A program made the translations under genes and the position numbers. From a virus (lineage: Duplodnaviria; Heunggongvirae; Uroviricota; Caudoviricetes; Peduoviridae): a stretch of DNA of 31,096 nt. Positions 1 through 21,913 of this stretch are shown here, in pieces (the stretch's first letter is position 1; the number at the start of each line of letters is the position of its first letter). Under the pieces are notes generated by a model. The model searched no databases. It was given only the letters and a program-made list of their open reading frames with translations, and was not told the origin of the DNA. The stretch lies in the IMG/VR virus record IMGVR_UViG_2974787870_000001, one strand, 5' to 3'.

Positions 1-2286
1 ATGGCCGTTAAAGCCTCCGGGCGTTTTGTCCCTCCGTCAGCATTTGCCGCAGGCACCGGTAAGGCGTTTACCGGTGCTTATGCATGGAACGCGCCACGCG
101 AGGCTGTCGGGCGCGAAAGACCCCTTACACGTGACGAGATGCGTCAGGTGCAAGGTGTTTTATCCACGATTAACCGCCTGCCTTACTTTTTGCGCTCGCT
201 GTTTACTTCACGCTATGACTACATCCGGCGCAATAAAAGCCCGGTGCACGGGTTTTATTTCCTCACATCCACTTTTCAGCGTCGTTTATGGCCGCGCATT
301 GAGCGTGTGAATCAGCGCCATGAAATGAACACCGACGCGTCGTTACTGTTTCTGGCAGAGCGTGACCACTATGCGCGCCTGCCGGGAATGAATGACAAGG
401 AGCTGAAAAAGTTTGCTGCCCGTATCTCATCGCAGCTTTTCATGATGTATGAGGAACTCAGCGATGCCTGGGTGGATGCGCATGGCGAAAAAGAATCGCT
501 GTTTACGGATGAGGCGCAGGCTCACCTCTATGGTCATGTTGCTGGCGCTGCACGTGCTTTCAATATTTCCCCTCTCTACTGGAAAAAATACCGTAAAGGA
601 CAGATAACCACGAGGCAGGCATATTCTGCCATTGCCCGTCTGTTTAACGATGAGTGGTGGACTCATCAGCTTAAAGGCCAGCGTATGCGCTGGCATGAGG
701 CGTTACTGATTGCTGTCGGGGAGGTCAATAAAGACCGTTCTCCTTATGCCAGTAAACATGCCATTCGTGATGTGCGTGCGCGCCGCCAGGCAAATCTGGA
801 ATTTCTTAAATCGTGTGACCTCGAAAACAGGGAAACCGGCGAGCGCATCGACCTTATCAGTAAGGTGATGGGCAGTATTTCTAATCCTGAAATTCGCCGG
901 ATGGAGCTGATGAACACCATTGCCGGTATTGAGCGTTACGCCGCCGCAGAAGGTGATGTGGGGATGTTTATCACGCTGACCGCGCCGTCAAAGTATCACC
1001 CGACTCGTCAGGTTGGAAAAGGCGAAAGTAAAACCGTTCAGCTTAATCACGGCTGGAATGATGAGGCATTTAATCCAAAGGATGCGCAGCGTTATCTCTG
1101 CCGTATCTGGAGCCTGATGCGCACGGCATTCAAGGATAATGATTTACAGGTCTACGGTTTGCGAGTCGTCGAGCCACACCACGACGGAACGCCGCACTGG
1201 CATATGATGCTTTTTTGTAATCCACGCCAGCGTAACCAAATTATCGAAATCATGCGTCGCTATGCGCTCAAAGAGGATGGCGACGAAAGAGGAGCCGCGC
1301 GAAACCGTTTTCAGGCAAAACACCTTAACCGGGGCGGTGCTGCGGGATATATCGCGAAATACATTTCAAAAAATATCGACGGATATGCACTGGATGGTCA
1401 GCTCGATAACGATACCGGCAGACCGCTGAAAGACACTGCCGCGGCTGTTACCGCATGGGCGTCAACGTGGCGCATCCCGCAATTTAAAACGGTTGGTCTG
1501 CCGACAATGGGGGCTTACCGTGAACTACGCAAATTGCCGCGCGGCGTCAGCATTGCTGATGAGTTTGACGAGCGCGTCGAGGCTGCACGCGCCGCCGCAG
1601 ACAGTGGTGATTTTGCGCTGTATATCAGCGCGCAGGGTGGGGCAAATGTCCCGCGCGATTGTCAGACTGTCAGGGTCGCCCGTAGTCCGTCGGATGAAGT
1701 TAACGAGTACGAGGAAGAAGTCGAGAGAGTGGTCGGCATTTACGCGCCGCATCTCGGCGCGCGTCATATTCATATCACCAGAACGACGGACTGGCGCATT
1801 GTTCCGAAAGTGCCGGTCGTTGAGCCTTTGACTTTAAAAAGCGGCATCGCCGCGCCTCGGAGTCCTGTCAATAACTGTGGAAAGCTCACCGGTGGTGATA
1901 CTTCGTTACCGGCTCCCACGCCTTCTGAGCACGCCGCAGCAGTGCTTAATCTGGTTGATGACGGTGTTATCGAATGGAATGACCCGGAGGTCGTGAGGGC
2001 GCTCAGGGGCGCATTAAAACACGACCGGAGAACGCCAAACCGTCAGCAAAGAAACGGAAGCCCGTTAAAACCGCATGAAATTGCACCATCGGCCAGACTG
2101 ACCCGGTCTGAACGATTGCAAATCACCCGTATCCGCGTTGACCTTGCTCAGAACGGTATCAGGCCGCAGCGATGGGAGCTTGAGGCGCTGGTGCGTGGCG
2201 CGACCGTAAATTATGACGGGAAAAAATTCACGTATCCGGTCGCTGATGAGTGGCCGGGATTCTCAACAGTAATGGAGTGGACATGA
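1..2286 (+). CDS. A: Replication initiation protein GpA (rolling-circle HUH endonuclease)
   Basis: 761-aa ORF; HUH-type motif 'PHWHMMLF' and paired-tyrosine motif 'YIAKYISK'; N-terminus and length match my recollection of P2 GpA. Confidence 0.93.
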   Translation: MAVKASGRFVPPSAFAAGTGKAFTGAYAWNAPREAVGRERPLTRDEMRQVQGVLSTINRLPYFLRSLFTSRYDYIRRNKSPVHGFYFLTSTFQRRLWPRIERVNQRHEMNTDASLLFLAERDHYARLPGMNDKELKKFAARISSQLFMMYEELSDAWVDAHGEKESLFTDEAQAHLYGHVAGAARAFNISPLYWKKYRKGQITTRQAYSAIARLFNDEWWTHQLKGQRMRWHEALLIAVGEVNKDRSPYASKHAIRDVRARRQANLEFLKSCDLENRETGERIDLISKVMGSISNPEIRRMELMNTIAGIERYAAAEGDVGMFITLTAPSKYHPTRQVGKGESKTVQLNHGWNDEAFNPKDAQRYLCRIWSLMRTAFKDNDLQVYGLRVVEPHHDGTPHWHMMLFCNPRQRNQIIEIMRRYALKEDGDERGAARNRFQAKHLNRGGAAGYIAKYISKNIDGYALDGQLDNDTGRPLKDTAAAVTAWASTWRIPQFKTVGLPTMGAYRELRKLPRGVSIADEFDERVEAARAAADSGDFALYISAQGGANVPRDCQTVRVARSPSDEVNEYEEEVERVVGIYAPHLGARHIHITRTTDWRIVPKVPVVEPLTLKSGIAAPRSPVNNCGKLTGGDTSLPAPTPSEHAAAVLNLVDDGVIEWNDPEVVRALRGALKHDRRTPNRQQRNGSPLKPHEIAPSARLTRSERLQITRIRVDLAQNGIRPQRWELEALVRGATVNYDGKKFTYPVADEWPGFSTVMEWT
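1851..1875 (+). promoter_or_regulatory. Candidate ori nick site inside gene A (cgcgcctcggagtcctgtcaataac)
   Basis: In P2 the origin lies within the A coding sequence and is nicked by GpA; this stretch matches my recollection of the published nick-site sequence. Recalled, not computed. Confidence 0.45.
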
Positions 2287-2738
2287 TGGCAAAAATTCAC
2301 GAGGTAAAGCTGCACGCAAAATATTTTGACCTTGTGCTGGAAGGAAAGAAACGCGCAGAGTTTCGGAAAAATGACCGTAATTATGAGCGCGGGGACACGT
2401 TGATTTTGCATGAATGGGTGCAGGGTGTGTATACGGGGCGAAAGGTTGAAGCCCGGATAACAGATGTTACTGACCTGTCAGACTGGCTGGAAGATTATGT
2501 CTTGCTAAGTATTGAGCTGCTTAATACAGGCGCATATGAGATTGTGAACTGGAAAGAACTTAGTGAGCGTGGTCTGGTATTCAGAATTAATCATGAAATT
2601 ATGCATCAGCTCGGCCTTGCTGTTATGTATGCACCAGAGACGGGGATGTCTGGCGGGGCAATGGTTGCCACGGATGGAGCATGGAACTATTCAGATGAAC
2701 AGATTGAGCGTGCACAGCAAAACGGGTGGCTTGGATAA
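2283..2738 (+). CDS. Hypothetical protein, N-terminal ASCH/PUA-like (DUF3850-like) domain
   Basis: ATG at 2283 overlaps the A stop (ATGA); 151 aa; N-terminal 'KIHEVKLHAKYFDLVLEGKKRAEFRKNDRNYERGDTLILHEW' resembles small ASCH-fold proteins; C-terminal half unassigned. Confidence 0.6.
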   Translation: MMAKIHEVKLHAKYFDLVLEGKKRAEFRKNDRNYERGDTLILHEWVQGVYTGRKVEARITDVTDLSDWLEDYVLLSIELLNTGAYEIVNWKELSERGLVFRINHEIMHQLGLAVMYAPETGMSGGAMVATDGAWNYSDEQIERAQQNGWLG

Positions 2739-2944
2739 TGCACAGAATACCAGGCGAGATACCGCACCATAAAACTAAAAATATCAAGCTGATGGCTATT
2801 GTTCAGCGTTTACAGCGGATTATGGTCAACGAAAATCTGACGCCTGACGAGCTGGTCGGGTGTGCCGAAATAGTCCGGGATAATTACGGGCGGCTTAATT
2901 ATATCCGTCAGTCCAGAGTTGCTCCACCGCCACGCAGACTATAG
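2738..2944 (+). CDS. Small hypothetical protein (68 aa)
   Basis: ATG at 2738 overlaps the upstream stop (TAATG), suggesting translational coupling; no recognisable motif. Confidence 0.4.
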   Translation: MHRIPGEIPHHKTKNIKLMAIVQRLQRIMVNENLTPDELVGCAEIVRDNYGRLNYIRQSRVAPPPRRL

Positions 2945-3118
2945 AAAACGCCGTCAGTCTTGAAACTTGTTTTCAGGGCTGGCGGGGTTGAACAACGAGC
3001 ATCGCGAGGCGTTAGTGGTATTGGAACCAATGAGAAAACAAAAAACTCAACGCCTCCCCTCATGTTTGATGGTATGGTCTTGTTTTTAGGTAATGAAGCT
3101 TTATTCGGGTGACGTGCC

Positions 3119-3124
3119 TAATAT
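3119..3124 (+). promoter_or_regulatory. Candidate -10 element (TAATAT) for the AT-rich cargo gene
   Basis: Near-consensus -10 hexamer about 36 nt upstream of the 3160 start; no convincing -35. Confidence 0.25.
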
Positions 3125-3159
3125 AGCTTTCTGCATGACGTTAGAATGATGATGAGATC

Positions 3160-3762
3160 ATGTTATTAATGAATGAGAAAAAAAGACAAAAATATCTAAA
3201 GATAATGTTTGAATGTCAAAAGCGACTTGAAACACTTCATGCTTTATCATCTGGAAGGATTGATGGCATTTATTTTCAAGTGTTAATTGAAATGGAGGCG
3301 TTGCAGCTTAGGAAGCTACTAGAGCTCATTGCATTTTCATCTCTAATTTCACATGAAAAAGCATACGAGAAGGTTACAAAGAAGATTGATGGTGTATGGA
3401 AGGCGAAGAATATATTTAAAGAGTTGGAAAAGATAAACCCTAACTTTTATCCAGTACCAATATCAGGAGTAACCAAAACGGGCTGGACGAAACTAACGGG
3501 AGGTTTTTTGACGAAAAAACAGTTTATCAAGCTATATGATGAATGCTCAAAACATATTCACGTAAGGAACCCATATCGGGTTAGGGAAAACTCGCTGGGG
3601 TTTCATAAAAAAGTTCCAGAGTATTTATCAAGAATTGAAACTCTACTGTTAAAGCACATTGTTTCTCTTGCCGGGAATGAAGAACTTCTTCTTGTAGATG
3701 TGCCTCATTATGAAGACTCTGTAACAGCTATAAAAATGAGCCACCTCGTTAAAATGGGGTGA
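3160..3762 (+). CDS. AT-rich cargo ORF of unknown function (200 aa) in the tin/old slot; candidate defence or exclusion protein
   Basis: Uninterrupted 200-aa ORF; visibly far more AT-rich than the flanking phage genes; sits between A and cos where P2 carries tin and old; followed by its own hairpin. Confidence 0.65.
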   Translation: MLLMNEKKRQKYLKIMFECQKRLETLHALSSGRIDGIYFQVLIEMEALQLRKLLELIAFSSLISHEKAYEKVTKKIDGVWKAKNIFKELEKINPNFYPVPISGVTKTGWTKLTGGFLTKKQFIKLYDECSKHIHVRNPYRVRENSLGFHKKVPEYLSRIETLLLKHIVSLAGNEELLLVDVPHYEDSVTAIKMSHLVKMG

Positions 3763-4168: not shown

Positions 4169-5203
4169 TCAGCCGTTGTCTGTGTCCAGTGAGTAGTTTT
4201 TAAAGCGGATGACCTCCTGACCGAGCCAGCCGTTTATTTCCCGAATCCTGTCCTGTAACGGGATAAGCTCATTGCGGACAAAGACCTTTGCCACTTTCTC
4301 AATATCACCCAGCGACCCGACGTTCTCCGGCTTGCCTCCCATCAACTGAAAGGGGATGCGGTGCGCGTCCAGCAGGTCAGCGGCGCTGGCTTTTTTGATA
4401 TTAAAAAAATCGTCCTTCGTTGCCACTTCACTGAGCGGGATAATTTTAATGCCGTCAGCTTTCCCCTGCGGGGCATAGAGAAACAGATTTTTAAAGTTGT
4501 TGCGGCCTTTCGATTTAACCATGTTTTCGCGAAGCATTTCGATATCGTTGCGATCCTGCACGGCATCGGTAACGTACATGATGTATCCGGCATGCGCGCC
4601 GTTTTCGTAATACTTGCGGCGGAACAGCGTGGCTGACTCATTCAGCCAGGCAGAGTTAAGGGCGCTGAGATATTCCGGCAGGCCGTACAGCTCCTGATTA
4701 ATATCCGGCTCCAGCAGGTGAAACACGGAGCCGGGCGCGAAGGCTGTCGGCTCGTTGAAGGACGGCACCCACCAGTAAACATCCTCTTCCACGCCACGGC
4801 GGGTATATTTTGCCGGTGAGGTTTCCAGTCTGATGACCTTACCGGTGGTGCTGTATCGCTTTTCCAGAAACGCATTACCGAACACCAGAAAATCCAGCAC
4901 AAAGCGGCTGAAATCCTGCTGGGAAAGCCACGGGTGCGGGATAAACGTTGAAGCCAGAATATTACGTTTGACGTAAATCGGTGAGCTGTGATGCACGGCA
5001 GCACGCAGGCTTTTTGCCAGACCGGTAAAGCTGACCGGTGGCTCATACCATCTGCCGTTACTGATGCACTCAACGTAATCCAGAATGTCACGGCGGTCGA
5101 GTACCGGCACCGGCTCGCCAAAGGTGAATGCTTCCATTTTCGGGGCGCTGGCGGTGATTGTTTTTGCCGCAGGTCGCGGTGTTTTCCCTTTTTTCTTGCT
5201 CAT
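4169..5203 (-). CDS. Q: Portal (capsid vertex) protein GpQ
   Basis: 344-aa ORF; position next to cos and overlap (ATGA) with the terminase gene; length matches P2 Q. Confidence 0.9.
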   Translation of the reverse strand: MSKKKGKTPRPAAKTITASAPKMEAFTFGEPVPVLDRRDILDYVECISNGRWYEPPVSFTGLAKSLRAAVHHSSPIYVKRNILASTFIPHPWLSQQDFSRFVLDFLVFGNAFLEKRYSTTGKVIRLETSPAKYTRRGVEEDVYWWVPSFNEPTAFAPGSVFHLLEPDINQELYGLPEYLSALNSAWLNESATLFRRKYYENGAHAGYIMYVTDAVQDRNDIEMLRENMVKSKGRNNFKNLFLYAPQGKADGIKIIPLSEVATKDDFFNIKKASAADLLDAHRIPFQLMGGKPENVGSLGDIEKVAKVFVRNELIPLQDRIREINGWLGQEVIRFKNYSLDTDNG

Positions 5204-8061: not shown

Positions 8062-9135
8062 ATGCGCCAGGAAACCCGCTTTAAATTTAATGCCTACCTG
8101 TCCCGTGTTGCCGAACTGAACGGCATTGACGCCGGTGATGTGTCGAAAAAATTCACCGTTGAACCTTCGGTCACCCAGACCCTGATGAACACCATGCAGG
8201 AGTCCTCTGACTTTCTGACCCGCATCAACATTGTGCCGGTCAGCGAAATGAAAGGGGAAAAAATTGGTATCGGTGTCACCGGCTCCATCGCCAGCACCAC
8301 CGACACTGCCGGTGGCACCGAGCGTCAGCCGAAGGACTTCTCGAAGCTGGCGTCAAACAAGTACGAATGCGACCAGATTAACTTCGATTTTTATATCCGC
8401 TACAAAACGCTTGACCTGTGGGCGCGTTATCAGGATTTCCAGCTCCGTGTCCGTAACGCCATTATCAAACGTCAGTCCCTTGATTTCATCATGGCCGGTT
8501 TTAACGGCGTGAAGCGTGCCGAAACCTCTGACCGCAGCAGCAATCCGATGCTGCAGGATGTGGCGGTCGGCTGGCTGCAGAAATACCGCAATGAAGCCCC
8601 GGCGCGCGTGATGAGCAAGGTCACTGACGAGGAAGGTCACACCACCTCTGAGGTCATCCGCGTGGGTAAGGGCGGTGATTATGTAAGCCTCGATGCACTG
8701 GTGATGGATGCGACCAACAACCTGATTGAGCCGTGGTATCAGGAAGACCCTGACCTTGTGGTGATTGTGGGGCGTCAGCTACTGGCGGACAAGTATTTCC
8801 CCATCGTCAACAGGGAGCAGGACAACAGCGAGATGCTGGCCGCTGACGTCATCATCAGCCAGAAACGCATCGGTAACCTGCCGGCGGTACGTGTCCCGTA
8901 CTTCCCGGCGGATGCGATGCTCATCACGAAGCTGGAAAACCTGTCCATCTACTACATGGATGACAGCCATCGCCGCGTGATTGTGGAAAACCCGAAACTC
9001 GACCGCGTGGAGAACTACGAGTCAATGAACATTGATTACGTGGTGGAAGACTACGCCGCCGGTTGTCTGGTGGAAAAAATCAAGGTCGGTGATTTCTCCA
9101 CACCGGCTAAAGCGACCGCAGAGCCGGGAGCGTAA
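8062..9135 (+). CDS. N: Major capsid protein GpN
   Basis: 357-aa ORF recognised as P2 N-type major capsid protein; synteny. Confidence 0.92.
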   Translation: MRQETRFKFNAYLSRVAELNGIDAGDVSKKFTVEPSVTQTLMNTMQESSDFLTRINIVPVSEMKGEKIGIGVTGSIASTTDTAGGTERQPKDFSKLASNKYECDQINFDFYIRYKTLDLWARYQDFQLRVRNAIIKRQSLDFIMAGFNGVKRAETSDRSSNPMLQDVAVGWLQKYRNEAPARVMSKVTDEEGHTTSEVIRVGKGGDYVSLDALVMDATNNLIEPWYQEDPDLVVIVGRQLLADKYFPIVNREQDNSEMLAADVIISQKRIGNLPAVRVPYFPADAMLITKLENLSIYYMDDSHRRVIVENPKLDRVENYESMNIDYVVEDYAAGCLVEKIKVGDFSTPAKATAEPGA

Positions 9136-9138
9136 CCG

Positions 9139-9882
9139 ATGACGAGTCCCGCACAGCGCCACATGATGCGGGTCTCGGCAGCGATGACCGCGCAGCGGGA
9201 AGCCGCCCCGCTGCGACATGCAACTGTCTATGAGCAGATGCTGGTCAAGCTGGCCGCAGACCAGCGCACACTGAAAGCGATTTATTCAAAAGAGCTTAAG
9301 GCCGCGAAAAAACGCGAACTGCTGCCGTTCTGGTTGCCGTGGGTGAACGGCGTGCTGGAGCAGGGCAAAGGTGCACAGGATGACATTCTGATGACGGTCA
9401 TGCTGTGGCGTCTGGATACCGGCGATATTGCCGGTGCGCTGGAGATTGCCCGTTATGCCCTGAAGTACGGTCTGACCATGCCGGGTAAACACCGACGCAC
9501 CCCGCCGTACATGTTCACCGAGGAGGTGGCGCTCGCGGCCATGCGCGCTCACGCTGCCGGTGAGTCTGTGGATACCCGCCTGCTGACGGAGACCCTTGAA
9601 CTGACCGCCACGGCTGACATGCCTGATGAAGTGCGCGCAAAGCTGCACAAAATCACCGGTCTGTTTCTGCGTGACGCTGGTGATGCCGCAGGTGCGCTGG
9701 CGCACCTGCAACGTGCGACACAGCTCGACTGTCAGGCAGGCGTCAAAAAAGAGATTGAACGACTGGAGCGGGAACTGAAACCGAAGCCGGAGCCACAGCC
9801 AAAAGCGGCCACCCGCGCCCCGCGTAAGACCCGGAGTGCGACACCGGCAAAACGTGGACGCCCGAAAAAGAAAGCCAGTTAA
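9139..9882 (+). CDS. M: Terminase small (endonuclease) subunit GpM
   Basis: 247-aa ORF immediately after N; basic C-terminal tail; synteny with P2 M. Confidence 0.88.
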   Translation: MTSPAQRHMMRVSAAMTAQREAAPLRHATVYEQMLVKLAADQRTLKAIYSKELKAAKKRELLPFWLPWVNGVLEQGKGAQDDILMTVMLWRLDTGDIAGALEIARYALKYGLTMPGKHRRTPPYMFTEEVALAAMRAHAAGESVDTRLLTETLELTATADMPDEVRAKLHKITGLFLRDAGDAAGALAHLQRATQLDCQAGVKKEIERLERELKPKPEPQPKAATRAPRKTRSATPAKRGRPKKKAS

Positions 9883-18580: not shown

Positions 18581-19108
18581 ATGCAGCATTTAAAAAATAT
18601 TACTGCGGGTAATCCAAAAACTGTTGCCCAATATCAACTGACAAAAAATTTTGATGTTATCTGGTTATGGTCCGAAGAGGGAAAAAACTGGTATGAGGAA
18701 GTAAGTAATTTTCAGGAAGACACGATAAAGATTGTTTACGACGAGAATAATATAATTGTCGGCATCACCAGAGATGCTTCAACGCTCAACCCTGAAGGTT
18801 TTAGCGTTGTCGAGGTTCCTGATATTACCGCCAACCGACGTGCTGATGACTCAGGTAAATGGATGTTTAAGGATGGTGCCGTGATTAAGCGGATTTATAC
18901 GGCAGACGAACAGCAACAACAGGCAGAATCACAAAAGGCCGCGTTACTTTCCGAAACCGAATCCGTGATTTTGCCGCTGGAGCGCGCTGTCAGGCTGAAT
19001 ATGGCAACAGATGAGGAGCGCAGTCGACTGGAAGCATGGGAACGCTACAGCGTTCTGGTCAGTCGTGTGGATCCTGCAAATCCTGAATGGCCGGAAATGC
19101 CGCAATAA
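18581..19108 (+). CDS. G: Tail fibre assembly chaperone GpG
   Basis: 175-aa ORF immediately after H; synteny. Confidence 0.82.
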
Positions 19109-19326
19109 GTTGTATGAGCTCTGGTGGGAGCTTACATATCTATGGCACAGAGTAAAGCCTAATCTGACAGTCCGCTCTGTGCTAGGAGCGGACATTGTTG
19201 CCATCTATCTGCATAAATCTGTGGGGAGCTGCTCACTTGTGGGGAATGAGTCCTCAACTGTTTGCGTTTATAAACACAATCCTTTAGATTTTCTCCTACT
19301 ATCTACTAAAATTTTATCTAGTGAAA

Positions 19327-20448
19327 ATGCCCAATAATCATATGTATGCAAGTCTACTGTCTTACAAAAACTTAAAGATGGCACATCAAGGAAGTAACTT
19401 ACGGTCTATTACTGAGTTTTCTCTCTATTCAGATAGTCAACCAATTGGGGCGGTTGATGATGATTCAGTTTATTGTTTTCTGAATATGCTACCCAGGATA
19501 ACCAAACAATCCACCGTTGCATCTTCAATTACAGTGCGCACAAAGTGGTATAGTGACTTAAATAATATGATTCTTTCTAGTTCTCAGAGTCATACAAAGG
19601 ATTATCATGGTGGATGGTATAATGATGAAATAGCTGCGCTTTCAAGTTTACTGCTTGGTGTCCGTTTTCATGCTGGGTCAATTACTCGTCACTATGATTA
19701 CTACACAGGTGATTTCGGAAGGATCCAAGCGGAGAGTTCTTTTCCTCCCGTTTTAGAGTTTAAACATAACAAACCTATAGTTCCTAATGCTATCAAAGAA
19801 ATTGATATAACTAACCTTAAAGAGCTTAACAATTTACATCTCTTAAGTGAAAAGAATTTCAACCATTTAATTAGAGCAGCCAGAAGCTATCAAAATGCAT
19901 TATGGATATGCGAGTCATCTCCAAATATGAGTTGGCTATTGATGGTGTCAGCCCTAGAATGTGCGGCTAATCAATGGGCAAAATCCAATGCGTCTAAAGA
20001 AGAAAGATTTAAACATGCCAAGCCTGAATTATATGAAAAATTAGATACCAATGAATTTAGACATTTAATCTCTATTATTGCTAATGAGTTTAAAGATTCA
20101 TTTGGGGCGACAAAGAAGTTTGTGGATTTCTGCCTGTATTTCCTTCCAGATGAACCTCAAGTGAGGCCAAAAGTAGGAAGAATTGATTGGGGAAAAGAAT
20201 CGCTATCAACAACTTTTAAAAAAATATATAACTACCGTTCTAAGGCATTGCATGGAGGACAACCATTTCCTGAGCCGATGTGTTCCTATCCTGAAGTATG
20301 GGATGGGTATATTGCTGAACGAGCGAGAGCATGTTCAACCTTAGGTGGAACGTGGTTGAATGAAGATGTGCCAATTAATTTAAATACATTCAACTTTATG
20401 ACCCATTCCATTTTGAATAAGTGGTGGCAATCTTTATTACCAAGTTAA
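19327..20448 (+). CDS. AT-rich cargo ORF of unknown function (about 373 aa) in the Z/fun slot; candidate defence or abortive-infection protein
   Basis: Long ORF in a strongly AT-rich island between G and FI; start uncertain (GTG 19321, ATG 19327, 19344 or 19378; none has a clear ribosome-binding site); Rx4H motif (RSKALH) near the C-terminus; perfect hairpin at its stop. Confidence 0.65.
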   Translation: MPNNHMYASLLSYKNLKMAHQGSNLRSITEFSLYSDSQPIGAVDDDSVYCFLNMLPRITKQSTVASSITVRTKWYSDLNNMILSSSQSHTKDYHGGWYNDEIAALSSLLLGVRFHAGSITRHYDYYTGDFGRIQAESSFPPVLEFKHNKPIVPNAIKEIDITNLKELNNLHLLSEKNFNHLIRAARSYQNALWICESSPNMSWLLMVSALECAANQWAKSNASKEERFKHAKPELYEKLDTNEFRHLISIIANEFKDSFGATKKFVDFCLYFLPDEPQVRPKVGRIDWGKESLSTTFKKIYNYRSKALHGGQPFPEPMCSYPEVWDGYIAERARACSTLGGTWLNEDVPINLNTFNFMTHSILNKWWQSLLPS

Positions 20449-20470
20449 CACTGTAAGTATCAGTGTTAAC
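20444..20470 (+). terminator. Perfect 10-bp inverted repeat (GTTAACACTG-N7-CAGTGTTAAC) at the end of the cargo ORF
   Basis: Read directly; overlaps the stop codon; AT-rich downstream, so terminator function is plausible but unproven. Confidence 0.4.
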
Positions 20471-20600
20471 TGCACCATGTAATTTTATATCTGTACCAGA
20501 CTGGAGGAAAATGTTCGCTTATCGCCCATTAGGGTCAACCATACTCAAATCTCTCACATTGCAGGAGATTTGAGTATGAACACGTCACCGTGGAAGGACT

Positions 20601-20623
20601 GGCGGGCGAATTGCCCGCTTTTT
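20601..20623 (+). terminator. Intrinsic terminator closing the cargo island
   Basis: GCGGGC-GAATT-GCCCGC hairpin followed by TTTTTTG, directly upstream of the candidate FI late promoter element. Confidence 0.65.
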
Positions 20624-20632
20624 TGTATCTGT

Positions 20633-20650
20633 TGTTTCATCCACTGACCA
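20633..20650 (+). promoter_or_regulatory. Candidate Ogr-dependent late promoter element for FI (TGT-N12-CCA)
   Basis: Same TGT-N12-CCA pattern as in the P/O region, about 80 nt upstream of the FI start. Confidence 0.3.
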
Positions 20651-20722
20651 GCCAGGTCAAATAGCGTCTCATGCTCTGCACAACAGAAAATAGTTGCACC
20701 CATTAACCACGGAGTTAAACGG

Positions 20723-21913
20723 ATGAGTGACTATCATCACGGCGTGCAGGTGCTGGAGATTAACGACGGCACCCGCGTCATTTCCACCGTATCCACCGCC
20801 ATTGTTGGCATGGTCTGCACGGCCAGCGATGCGGATGCGGAAACCTTCCCCGTCAATAAACCGGTGCTGATCACCAATGTGCAGAGCGCGATTGCAAAGG
20901 CCGGTAAAAAAGGCACGCTGGCGGCATCGTTGCAGGCCATCGCTGACCAGTCAAAACCGGTCACCGTTGTCGTGCGCGTGGAAGACGGCACCGGCGACGA
21001 CGAAGAAACGAAACTCGCGCAGACCGTTTCCAATATCATCGGCACCACTGACGAAAACGGTCAGTACACCGGACTGAAAGCCCTGATGGGCGCAGAGTCG
21101 GTTACCGGCGTTAAACCGCGCATTCTCGGCGTACCGGGACTGGACACCAAAGAGGTGGCGGTTGCACTGGCATCGGTATGCCAGGAACTGAATGCCTTCG
21201 GGTATATCAGCGCATGGGGCTGTAAAACCATTTCCGAGGCAAAAGCCTACCGTCAGAATTTCAGTCAGCGTGAGCTGATGGTCATCTGGCCGGATTTCCT
21301 TGCATGGGATACGGTCACCAGTACCACCGCCACCGCGTATGCCACCGCCCGTGCGCTGGGGCTGCGTGCCAAAATCGACCAGGAGCAGGGCTGGCATAAA
21401 ACGCTGTCCAACGTCGGGGTAAACGGTGTTACCGGCATCAGCGCATCTGTATTCTGGGATTTGCAGAAGTCTGGCACTGATGCTGACCTGCTGAACGAGG
21501 CAGGCGTCACAACGCTGGTTCGCCGCGACGGTTTCCGTTTCTGGGGTAACCGTACCTGCTCCGATGACCCACTTTTCCTCTTTGAAAGCTACACACGTAC
21601 CGCGCAGGTACTGGCCGACACGATGGCTGAGGCGCACATGTGGGCTATTGATAAGCCCATCACCGCAACGCTGATTCGCGACATCATTGATGGCATCAAT
21701 GCCAAATTCCGCGAACTGAAAAACAACGGTTATATCGTGGATGGCACATGCTGGTTCAGTGAAGAAGCCAACGATGCGGAAACCCTCAAGGCCGGAAAAC
21801 TGTATATCGACTACGACTATACACCGGTGCCTCCTCTCGAAAACCTGACCCTGCGCCAGCGTATTACTTCAAGATACCTGGCAAGTCTGGTCACCTCGGT
21901 TAACAGCAATTAA
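20723..21913 (+). CDS. FI: Tail sheath protein FI
   Basis: 396-aa ORF; synteny. Confidence 0.92.
   Translation: MSDYHHGVQVLEINDGTRVISTVSTAIVGMVCTASDADAETFPVNKPVLITNVQSAIAKAGKKGTLAASLQAIADQSKPVTVVVRVEDGTGDDEETKLAQTVSNIIGTTDENGQYTGLKALMGAESVTGVKPRILGVPGLDTKEVAVALASVCQELNAFGYISAWGCKTISEAKAYRQNFSQRELMVIWPDFLAWDTVTSTTATAYATARALGLRAKIDQEQGWHKTLSNVGVNGVTGISASVFWDLQKSGTDADLLNEAGVTTLVRRDGFRFWGNRTCSDDPLFLFESYTRTAQVLADTMAEAHMWAIDKPITATLIRDIIDGINAKFRELKNNGYIVDGTCWFSEEANDAETLKAGKLYIDYDYTPVPPLENLTLRQRITSRYLASLVTSVNSN

Follow-up and report, generated by a model that had tools for sequence, protein, structure and literature searches.

A single-gene cargo between G and FI of a P2-like phage encodes a predicted HEPN protein with a putative anti-phage role

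The DNA analysed here is a stretch of 31,096 nucleotides (the window; IMG/VR record IMGVR_UViG_2974787870_000001, Peduoviridae), which approximates a P2-like phage genome. Between its tail-fibre assembly gene G and its tail sheath gene FI lies one long open reading frame (ORF) on the plus strand (19327–20448), which encodes a protein of 373 residues from an ATG start and belongs to a large uncharacterised family. The gene forms a single-gene cassette of foreign DNA, insulated from its surroundings, in a slot that harbours proven defences. We are confident that its product is a HEPN protein, and it probably has an anti-phage function. We moderately favour the fuller reading that the gene is a horizontally acquired, self-contained cassette for superinfection exclusion or abortive infection, in which sensing would be coupled to a HEPN domain.

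The protein family and its predicted HEPN fold

An earlier reading of the window, made from the sequence only, had offered an Rx4H motif near the C-terminus (RSKALH, R304–H309; 20236–20253, plus strand) as a hint of a HEPN-type RNase that could also occur by chance. The motif is the sole Rx4H in the protein and is not significant by itself, since about 0.5 are expected by chance at the protein's composition. A word-indexed search returned 200 relatives of the protein, and an exhaustive profile search returned 1,744 clusters (50% identity) at E ≤ 0.001, with 834 at E ≤ 1e-30; nearly all of the best 150 profile matches are 350–420 residues long and align end to end. Thirty-five columns are invariant in an alignment of 41 relatives (35–83% identity), including R304, S305, L308 and H309. 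All but one of the 271 full-length relatives have the form R[SC]xxxH (270/271), so the motif is not a chance occurrence, and the hint has grown into a near-invariant feature of a domain with a predicted HEPN fold.

That fold comes from an AlphaFold2 model built on the alignment of family members (mean predicted local distance difference test score, pLDDT, 92.8; predicted template modelling score 0.91). In the model the C-terminal part (residues ~175–373; 19849–20445, plus strand) is an all-helical, split HEPN domain with helices at 175–194, 199–221, 290–310 and 352–370 and insertions between helices 2 and 3 and between helices 3 and 4. Its core is an up-and-down helical bundle, and R304-x4-H309 stands at the end of the third core helix (290–310), the helix on which the superfamily carries its Rx4-6H motif. 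HEPN proteins named alongside this domain are the 4nqf HEPN domain, HI0074, Csm6, the HepT toxins, the sacsin HEPN domain and AbiV. With the full-length model as query, Foldseek found no PDB or BFVD entry below E = 0.7, and a profile search of PDB sequences gave one chance match only.

The N-terminal part (residues 1 to ~172; 19327–19842, plus strand), delimited by secondary structure and pLDDT in the same model, is an alpha/beta domain and a putative sensory or regulatory module. It is conserved, with invariant E30, D36, Y49, R71, H94, G95, E101 and R121 and a YHGGxxxDEIAAL motif, of which an HGG..DEIAAL-type form occurs in 226 of 271 relatives. The domain found no match in Pfam, in PDB sequences or by hhalign against ApeA, a HEPN defence protein discussed below.

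The start of this domain is annotated in two ways. GenBank phage records carry the 373-residue form, the RefSeq/PGAP version is 356 residues long from 19378 (WP_223660635.1, WP_249418720.1), and an alternative GTG start lies at 19321, two codons upstream of the ATG. We prefer the longer, 373-residue ORF because residues 8–17 are conserved over distant relatives (N15 at ≥90%) and are modelled as a confident helix.

Relatives longer than the common size carry N- or C-terminal extensions that are mostly low-complexity sequence or mis-called starts, and we therefore rejected these extensions as fused domains, with a single exception. The metagenomic relative P0239 (461 residues) ends in a ComEA-like helix-hairpin-helix DNA-binding domain that matches PDB 8dfk at E = 1.5e-9 and is the only genuine domain fusion among the longer relatives. 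This tail gives a slight hint that the infection cue could be a nucleic acid.

The G–FI slot, the limits of the cargo and its distribution

Over positions 18581–21000 the window shows 99.9% identity to the Peduovirus Yersinia phage vB_YpM_22 and sibling phages. Alignment of the window to P2 and to AJ512676, the P2-EC30 "Z-region" record, identifies the G–FI slot as the P2 Z/fun slot, with a variable insert between G and FI and conserved flanks on either side. Backbone conservation with both phages stops at ~19195 and restarts at ~20596, and the swapped cargo is thus about 19196–20595. The G+C fraction is 0.33–0.40 over 19150–20650 and 0.50–0.59 (about 0.55) in the flanks, in agreement with the sequence-only reading of one long ORF in AT-rich DNA between the two structural genes. 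The same reading had drawn the island from 19109 to 20625; the AT-rich cargo is there, but 19109 to ~19195 and the terminator on the right are conserved backbone.

The left backbone gene, outside the cargo, is the tail-fibre chaperone gene G (18581–19108, plus strand), a 175-residue ORF with PF02413 (Caudo_TAP) in identical loci and named tail fiber assembly protein in RefSeq. It is followed by a conserved left flank (19109–19195, plus strand), near-identical in three phages with different cargo, P2 and P2-EC30 included, and annotated as "left inverted repeat" in its P2-EC30 counterpart. This flank forms two hairpins (fold −32 kcal/mol, z = −2.0) and probably ends the V–G late operon. On the right, a GC-rich intrinsic terminator (20601–20626, plus strand; stem 20601–20619, then a T run) is common to P2 and P2-EC30. 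It closes the island as had been described, but belongs to the phage backbone rather than the cargo because conservation restarts at ~20596. The right backbone gene, also outside the cargo, is the tail sheath gene FI (20723–21913, plus strand; Phage_sheath_1 domains). A late promoter element had been placed ahead of FI, and this could not be confirmed: inspection of 20620–20722 by eye showed no TGT-N12-ACA dyad. Positions 20514–20595 are a diverged form of the P2 right-hand repeat, which is largely replaced in the window, and no long inverted repeats of the kind annotated around the P2-EC30 cargo were found in the window.

Terminator-like structures therefore bracket the cargo on both sides. 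Together with a weak sigma-70-like site of its own (TTTAGA-18-TAAAAT, 19283–19312, plus strand; 9/12 match), they lead us to infer an accessory ("moron") gene with transcription of its own. The −10-like element of this promoter candidate ends only 14 nucleotides 5' of the ATG at 19327, and the sequence upstream of a Klebsiella homologue is partly similar to it; the number of promoter-like sites in the region is not above shuffle expectation. A perfect hairpin spans the stop codon (20443–20471, plus strand), with arms of 11 nucleotides (20443–20453 and 20461–20471) where 10 had been reported. A second perfect hairpin, of 14 bp, lies in the 3' untranslated region (20540–20578, plus strand). Its counterpart in P2-EC30 is also a long hairpin but differs in sequence (L002 1960–2010; z = −4.3 and −4.9 for the two hairpins), so that the structure before the conserved terminator is kept and its sequence replaced; its role could be in RNA stability, termination or as a recombination boundary.

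The slot has a record as a site of defence genes. It has been described as a second defence-enriched locus of P2-like phages, with three validated systems besides fun (Vassallo 2022, PMC9519451), and a 2026 survey describes a defence hotspot in P2 late/tail genes. All other occupants that we examined are single genes: fun in P2 (299 residues); ORF1 in P2-EC30 (AJ512676, L002 364–1779; 471 residues), which is PD-T7-3/DARNA (PADLOC E = 3.5e-168) and was deposited in 2002 as a hypothetical protein; and, in E. coli prophages, a DUF4145 protein that PADLOC finds weakly similar to part of the PD-T7-4 model (E = 1.1e-08, 32.8 bits) and, encoded on the opposite strand, a protein with a SMEK domain. 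DefensePredictor validated a SMEK protein as DS-27 (PMC13092281). A further occupant is a 175-residue protein without an assigned identity. The alignment, the published survey of the slot and these alternative cargos in siblings all uphold the view of the slot as a variable defence hotspot. Since ORF1 is DARNA, the slot holds at least two, and with the DUF4145 cargo possibly three, mutually unrelated HEPN-type single genes.

Of 5,426 complete E. coli genomes, 2,622 have matches to the slot flanks, but only about five carry the cargo studied here. The identical 373-residue protein occurs in six P2-like phage records and in 202 blocks of a public assembly collection, and at all eight places that were inspected (L017–L024) it sits in the same slot. 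In these loci the identical cargo stands behind two tail-fibre/chaperone alleles (911 + 175 and 872 + 192 residues), which shows recombination around the cargo, with the host-range module and the cargo shuffled independently.

More distant relatives are found in various mobile and defence settings. The Klebsiella homologue (L004/L005) has a tRNA 3'-end-like sequence (GGTTCAAATCC...CCA, 9126-9200) directly 3' and, in L005, a phage integrase before it, which places it between int and att of an integrated element. Others lie at the tail-fibre ends of other tailed prophages, once beside a PIN_8 protein and UmuDC; a Kosakonia relative adjoins IS3 and an integrase; one relative adjoins a type IV secretion system coupling protein; and several are within islands of methylases, ResIII and PLD-SNF2 helicases, AbiJ_NTD4, Abi_C and DUF4145. 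In Pectobacterium versatile the homologue P0021 (L012 8001–9332) is called at 443 residues, its first ~70 residues are a truncated ParE toxin, and it comes straight after a ParD antitoxin gene; here the HEPN gene appears to have been inserted into a parDE module.

No partner gene conserved across the relatives' loci was found. A protein of ~320 residues with weak nucleoside 2-deoxyribosyltransferase/TIR-like similarity lies upstream of the relative in two closely related metagenomic loci (L009 6967–7944, L010 6985–7944), and was rejected as a conserved partner since it is confined to them. Two other relatives' genes are overlapped by neighbours, one by a DEAD/ResIII helicase gene (L030 8127–9857) and one by unassigned ORFs (L028 3018–3905).

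Elsewhere in the window, the second P2 accessory hotspot (2250–3762), between replication gene A (1–2286) and portal gene Q (4169–5203, minus strand), holds two genes. The first (2250–2738) encodes an ASCH/DUF3850 + DUF7415 protein. The second is a 200-residue ORF (3160–3762; G+C 0.37) without a Pfam or PADLOC match, a second uncharacterised cargo.

A proposed mechanism and its alternatives

The sequence-only reading had ended on a candidate single-gene abortive-infection or exclusion protein, and the slot, the sibling cargos and the settings of relatives agree with that as a predicted function. So does an independent listing: Table S10 ("uncharacterized_clusters") of DefensePredictor (Science 2026, PMC13092281) includes the RefSeq version of this gene, WP_223660635.1, and gives it a mean log-odds of 10.6, predicted_defensive TRUE and the label "Putative novel defense gene". 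The HEPN systems tested in that study (HEP2, HEP3, DS-11 and others) are different proteins, and signature peptides of the family do not occur in its supplement, some of which was covered in part only. Our searches found no close homologue of a function unrelated to defence.

As for how the protein would act, ApeA, DARNA/PD-T7-3, HepT and Csm6 serve as analogies, and we lean slightly towards abortive infection by RNA cleavage in which the N-terminal domain does the sensing. The lysogen would make the protein constitutively at a low level from its own promoter, with the terminators insulating it from the tail operons, and it would be kept inactive as a HEPN dimer or higher oligomer with its composite active site closed. 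When another phage infects, the N-terminal domain, perhaps jointly with the HEPN insertions, would bind a cue, for instance a small nucleotide-derived ligand or a nucleic acid. The cue would open the composite HEPN site and permit cleavage of RNA, most likely tRNA anticodon loops or mRNA; translation would stop and the infection would abort. More tentatively, the N-terminal domain could be a new infection-sensing module that allosterically gates a compact ApeA-like split HEPN tRNase, with a trigger unlike the deoxydinucleotides of ApeA or the SSB-bound ssDNA that switches on DARNA.

Several points weigh against this reading. As the sequence-only reading had found no named domain, so Pfam, PADLOC, PHROGs and NCBIfam gave no meaningful match for the protein, its two halves or the 41 relatives, and a literature search that included accession numbers found no paper testing this family. 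There is no clear Shine-Dalgarno sequence before either start (19327 or 19378), and the promoter candidate is a weak match to consensus. Likeness to ApeA was measured against 30 aligned homologues, collected with the N-terminal 399 residues of Ec2ApeA (supplement of bioRxiv 10.64898/2026.01.26.701840). In hhalign it reached E = 0.026 at full length and 0.007 for the domains alone, at a probability of 2–6% over 132–134 columns, with reversed-sequence controls at E = 0.04–0.07; cross-matches of hidden Markov model (HMM) against sequence stayed at ≤12 bits. Which RNA is cut, what sets off the cleavage and which oligomer forms are proposed purely by analogy. Finally, "single-gene" may not hold across the family, because the few relatives with overlapping or tightly linked neighbours may mark two-gene sub-lineages.

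The alternative that survives best, although we consider it unlikely, is a prophage-addiction or stress toxin: a HEPN RNase that makes the prophage more stable or, under stress, restrains host growth, without sensing incoming phages. HEPN toxins of toxin-antitoxin modules act in such roles. An addiction toxin of this kind would be expected beside an antitoxin, and no candidate was found, be it an MNT gene, an adjacent small ORF, a repeat array or a conserved non-coding RNA. The ORF list holds no second ORF within the cargo that could encode a partner or antitoxin, scans for an RNA antitoxin gave no tandem repeats or Rfam families, and alignments across homologue loci show no conservation of the non-coding DNA up- and downstream. 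An N-terminal domain as large and conserved as this one is typical of sensor-effector fusions and not of minimal toxins, and in the parDE case the gene seems to have been inserted into an existing locus.

Less probable again is an RNase that is of use to the phage itself or works against host defence, for example through host RNA decay in P2 lytic growth or by destroying cyclic-oligonucleotide immune signals, of which the HEPN domains of Csm6 are capable. The gene does lie among late genes in virion-packaged genomes of six P2-like phages, and some HEPN enzymes cut cyclic oligoadenylates (bioRxiv 10.64898/2026.02.22.705581). However, the terminators on either side separate it from the late operons, many relatives are chromosomal, in restriction-modification or defence islands and in non-phage mobile elements, the characterised slot cargos are defences, and the DefensePredictor score is defensive.

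A catalytically inert HEPN-fold protein, serving as a nucleotide- or protein-binding regulator without RNase activity, would have precedent in the non-catalytic binding modules that are established among HEPN domains (Anantharaman 2013, PMC3710099). Inactive HEPN domains usually lose the motif, whereas here R and H are near-invariant (270/271) and the flanking Y, W and G, which ApeA also conserves, are invariant; we regard this alternative as very improbable. A tail-fibre or tail-assembly accessory protein is scarcely credible: its position between G and FI and the two homologues that adjoin tail-fibre genes of other prophages are all that speak for it, and it is missing from nearly all P2-like prophages despite the frequency of the flanks, is replaced in the same slot by unrelated genes, lies in AT-rich foreign DNA, has relatives in non-phage contexts and is predicted to have a HEPN fold.

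We return to the anti-phage cassette and to what it would mean. If confirmed, it would add one more single-protein sensor-plus-HEPN immune system, small (373 residues), widespread and genetically tractable, with a sensor domain without known relatives, and for these reasons a useful case for how infection switches on HEPN RNases. Should the N-terminal domain be a sensing module as tentatively proposed, its more than 1,700 clusters (50% identity) would make up a new and widespread family of single-protein defences. The P2 G–FI slot repeatedly recruits unrelated single genes, several of them HEPN-type (DARNA, this family and possibly the DUF4145 protein), which suggests that exclusion genes acting through translation shutoff are selected for in P2 lysogens. 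P2-like phages that infect E. coli and Yersinia pestis carry the gene, which could alter the phage sensitivity of lysogens in typing or therapy.

Comparison with known systems

Among the closest named systems is ApeA (Gao_Ape), a single-protein HEPN anticodon nuclease switched on by deoxydinucleotides (bioRxiv 10.64898/2026.01.26.701840). Both proteins share an I-Y-x-x-R-[NS]-x-x-x-H-x-G context, an invariant W upstream and an invariant E in the second helix, and their invariants follow in the same order (ApeA/this protein: E371/E211, W493/W288, Y499/Y301, R502/R304, H507/H309, G509/G311), with RSKALH aligned to the catalytic R502–H507 of ApeA. The alignment holds nothing outside the HEPN domain. 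In ApeA, of ~585 residues, the N-terminal domain is helical and builds a dinucleotide pocket together with a Mid domain, whereas the 373-residue protein has one alpha/beta domain of ~170 residues in their place and no counterparts of the ligand-pocket residues T36, S40, E74, R148 and R152. The ApeA family HMMs (PADLOC; Pfam PF18739, HEPN_Apea) match neither this protein nor its 41 relatives. The PADLOC ApeA model is narrow, matching an Ec2ApeA homologue at only 2e-12 and missing distant ApeA homologues, and so its silence here is weak evidence; true ApeA homologues are likewise without a precomputed Pfam match. Automatic naming in UniProt gives "Apea-like HEPN domain-containing", and the best remote match of the protein in DefensePredictor is ApeA (probability 66.5, query coverage 0.126; PMC13092281). 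On the weak profile score, the confinement of the likeness to the HEPN domain and the different architecture, we do not class the protein as an ApeA; judged by sequence comparison, it has a remotely ApeA-like HEPN domain set in a different architecture.

DARNA/PD-T7-3, a proven HEPN tRNase activated by single-stranded DNA (bioRxiv 10.64898/2026.02.22.705581), resembles the putative system in being a single-gene abortive-infection HEPN protein with Rx4H and in occupying the same G–FI slot in P2-EC30. It differs in its domain order, which is the reverse: in DARNA (456 residues) the HEPN domain is N-terminal and a Pds5-like helical domain takes up the C-terminal part. Comparison of the two by hhalign gave nothing, and the 373-residue protein has no PADLOC PD-T7-3 match. 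The T5-exclusion gene fun(Z) of P2 shares the slot, the orientation, the single-gene layout and the same conserved flanks and terminator, but its product of 299 residues is unrelated (hhalign E = 0.34 over 23 columns; no PADLOC match). The DUF4145 slot cargo likewise gave nothing by hhalign against the 373-residue protein. The minimal HEPN toxins (HepT/MNT-HEPN; PDB 5yep, 7ae2, 8xdj) have 130–140 residues and an MNT antitoxin gene beside them, while the protein described here has no MNT neighbour, an extra N-terminal domain of 170 residues and insertions in its HEPN domain.

Set beside these systems, much will not surprise a specialist: single proteins that join a sensor to a HEPN RNase are a known kind, the slot is a known hotspot, and the protein itself has been flagged by a published predictor. 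What is new is the fusion of a previously unrecognised N-terminal domain to a compact, remotely ApeA-like HEPN domain, and the large family in which it is found.

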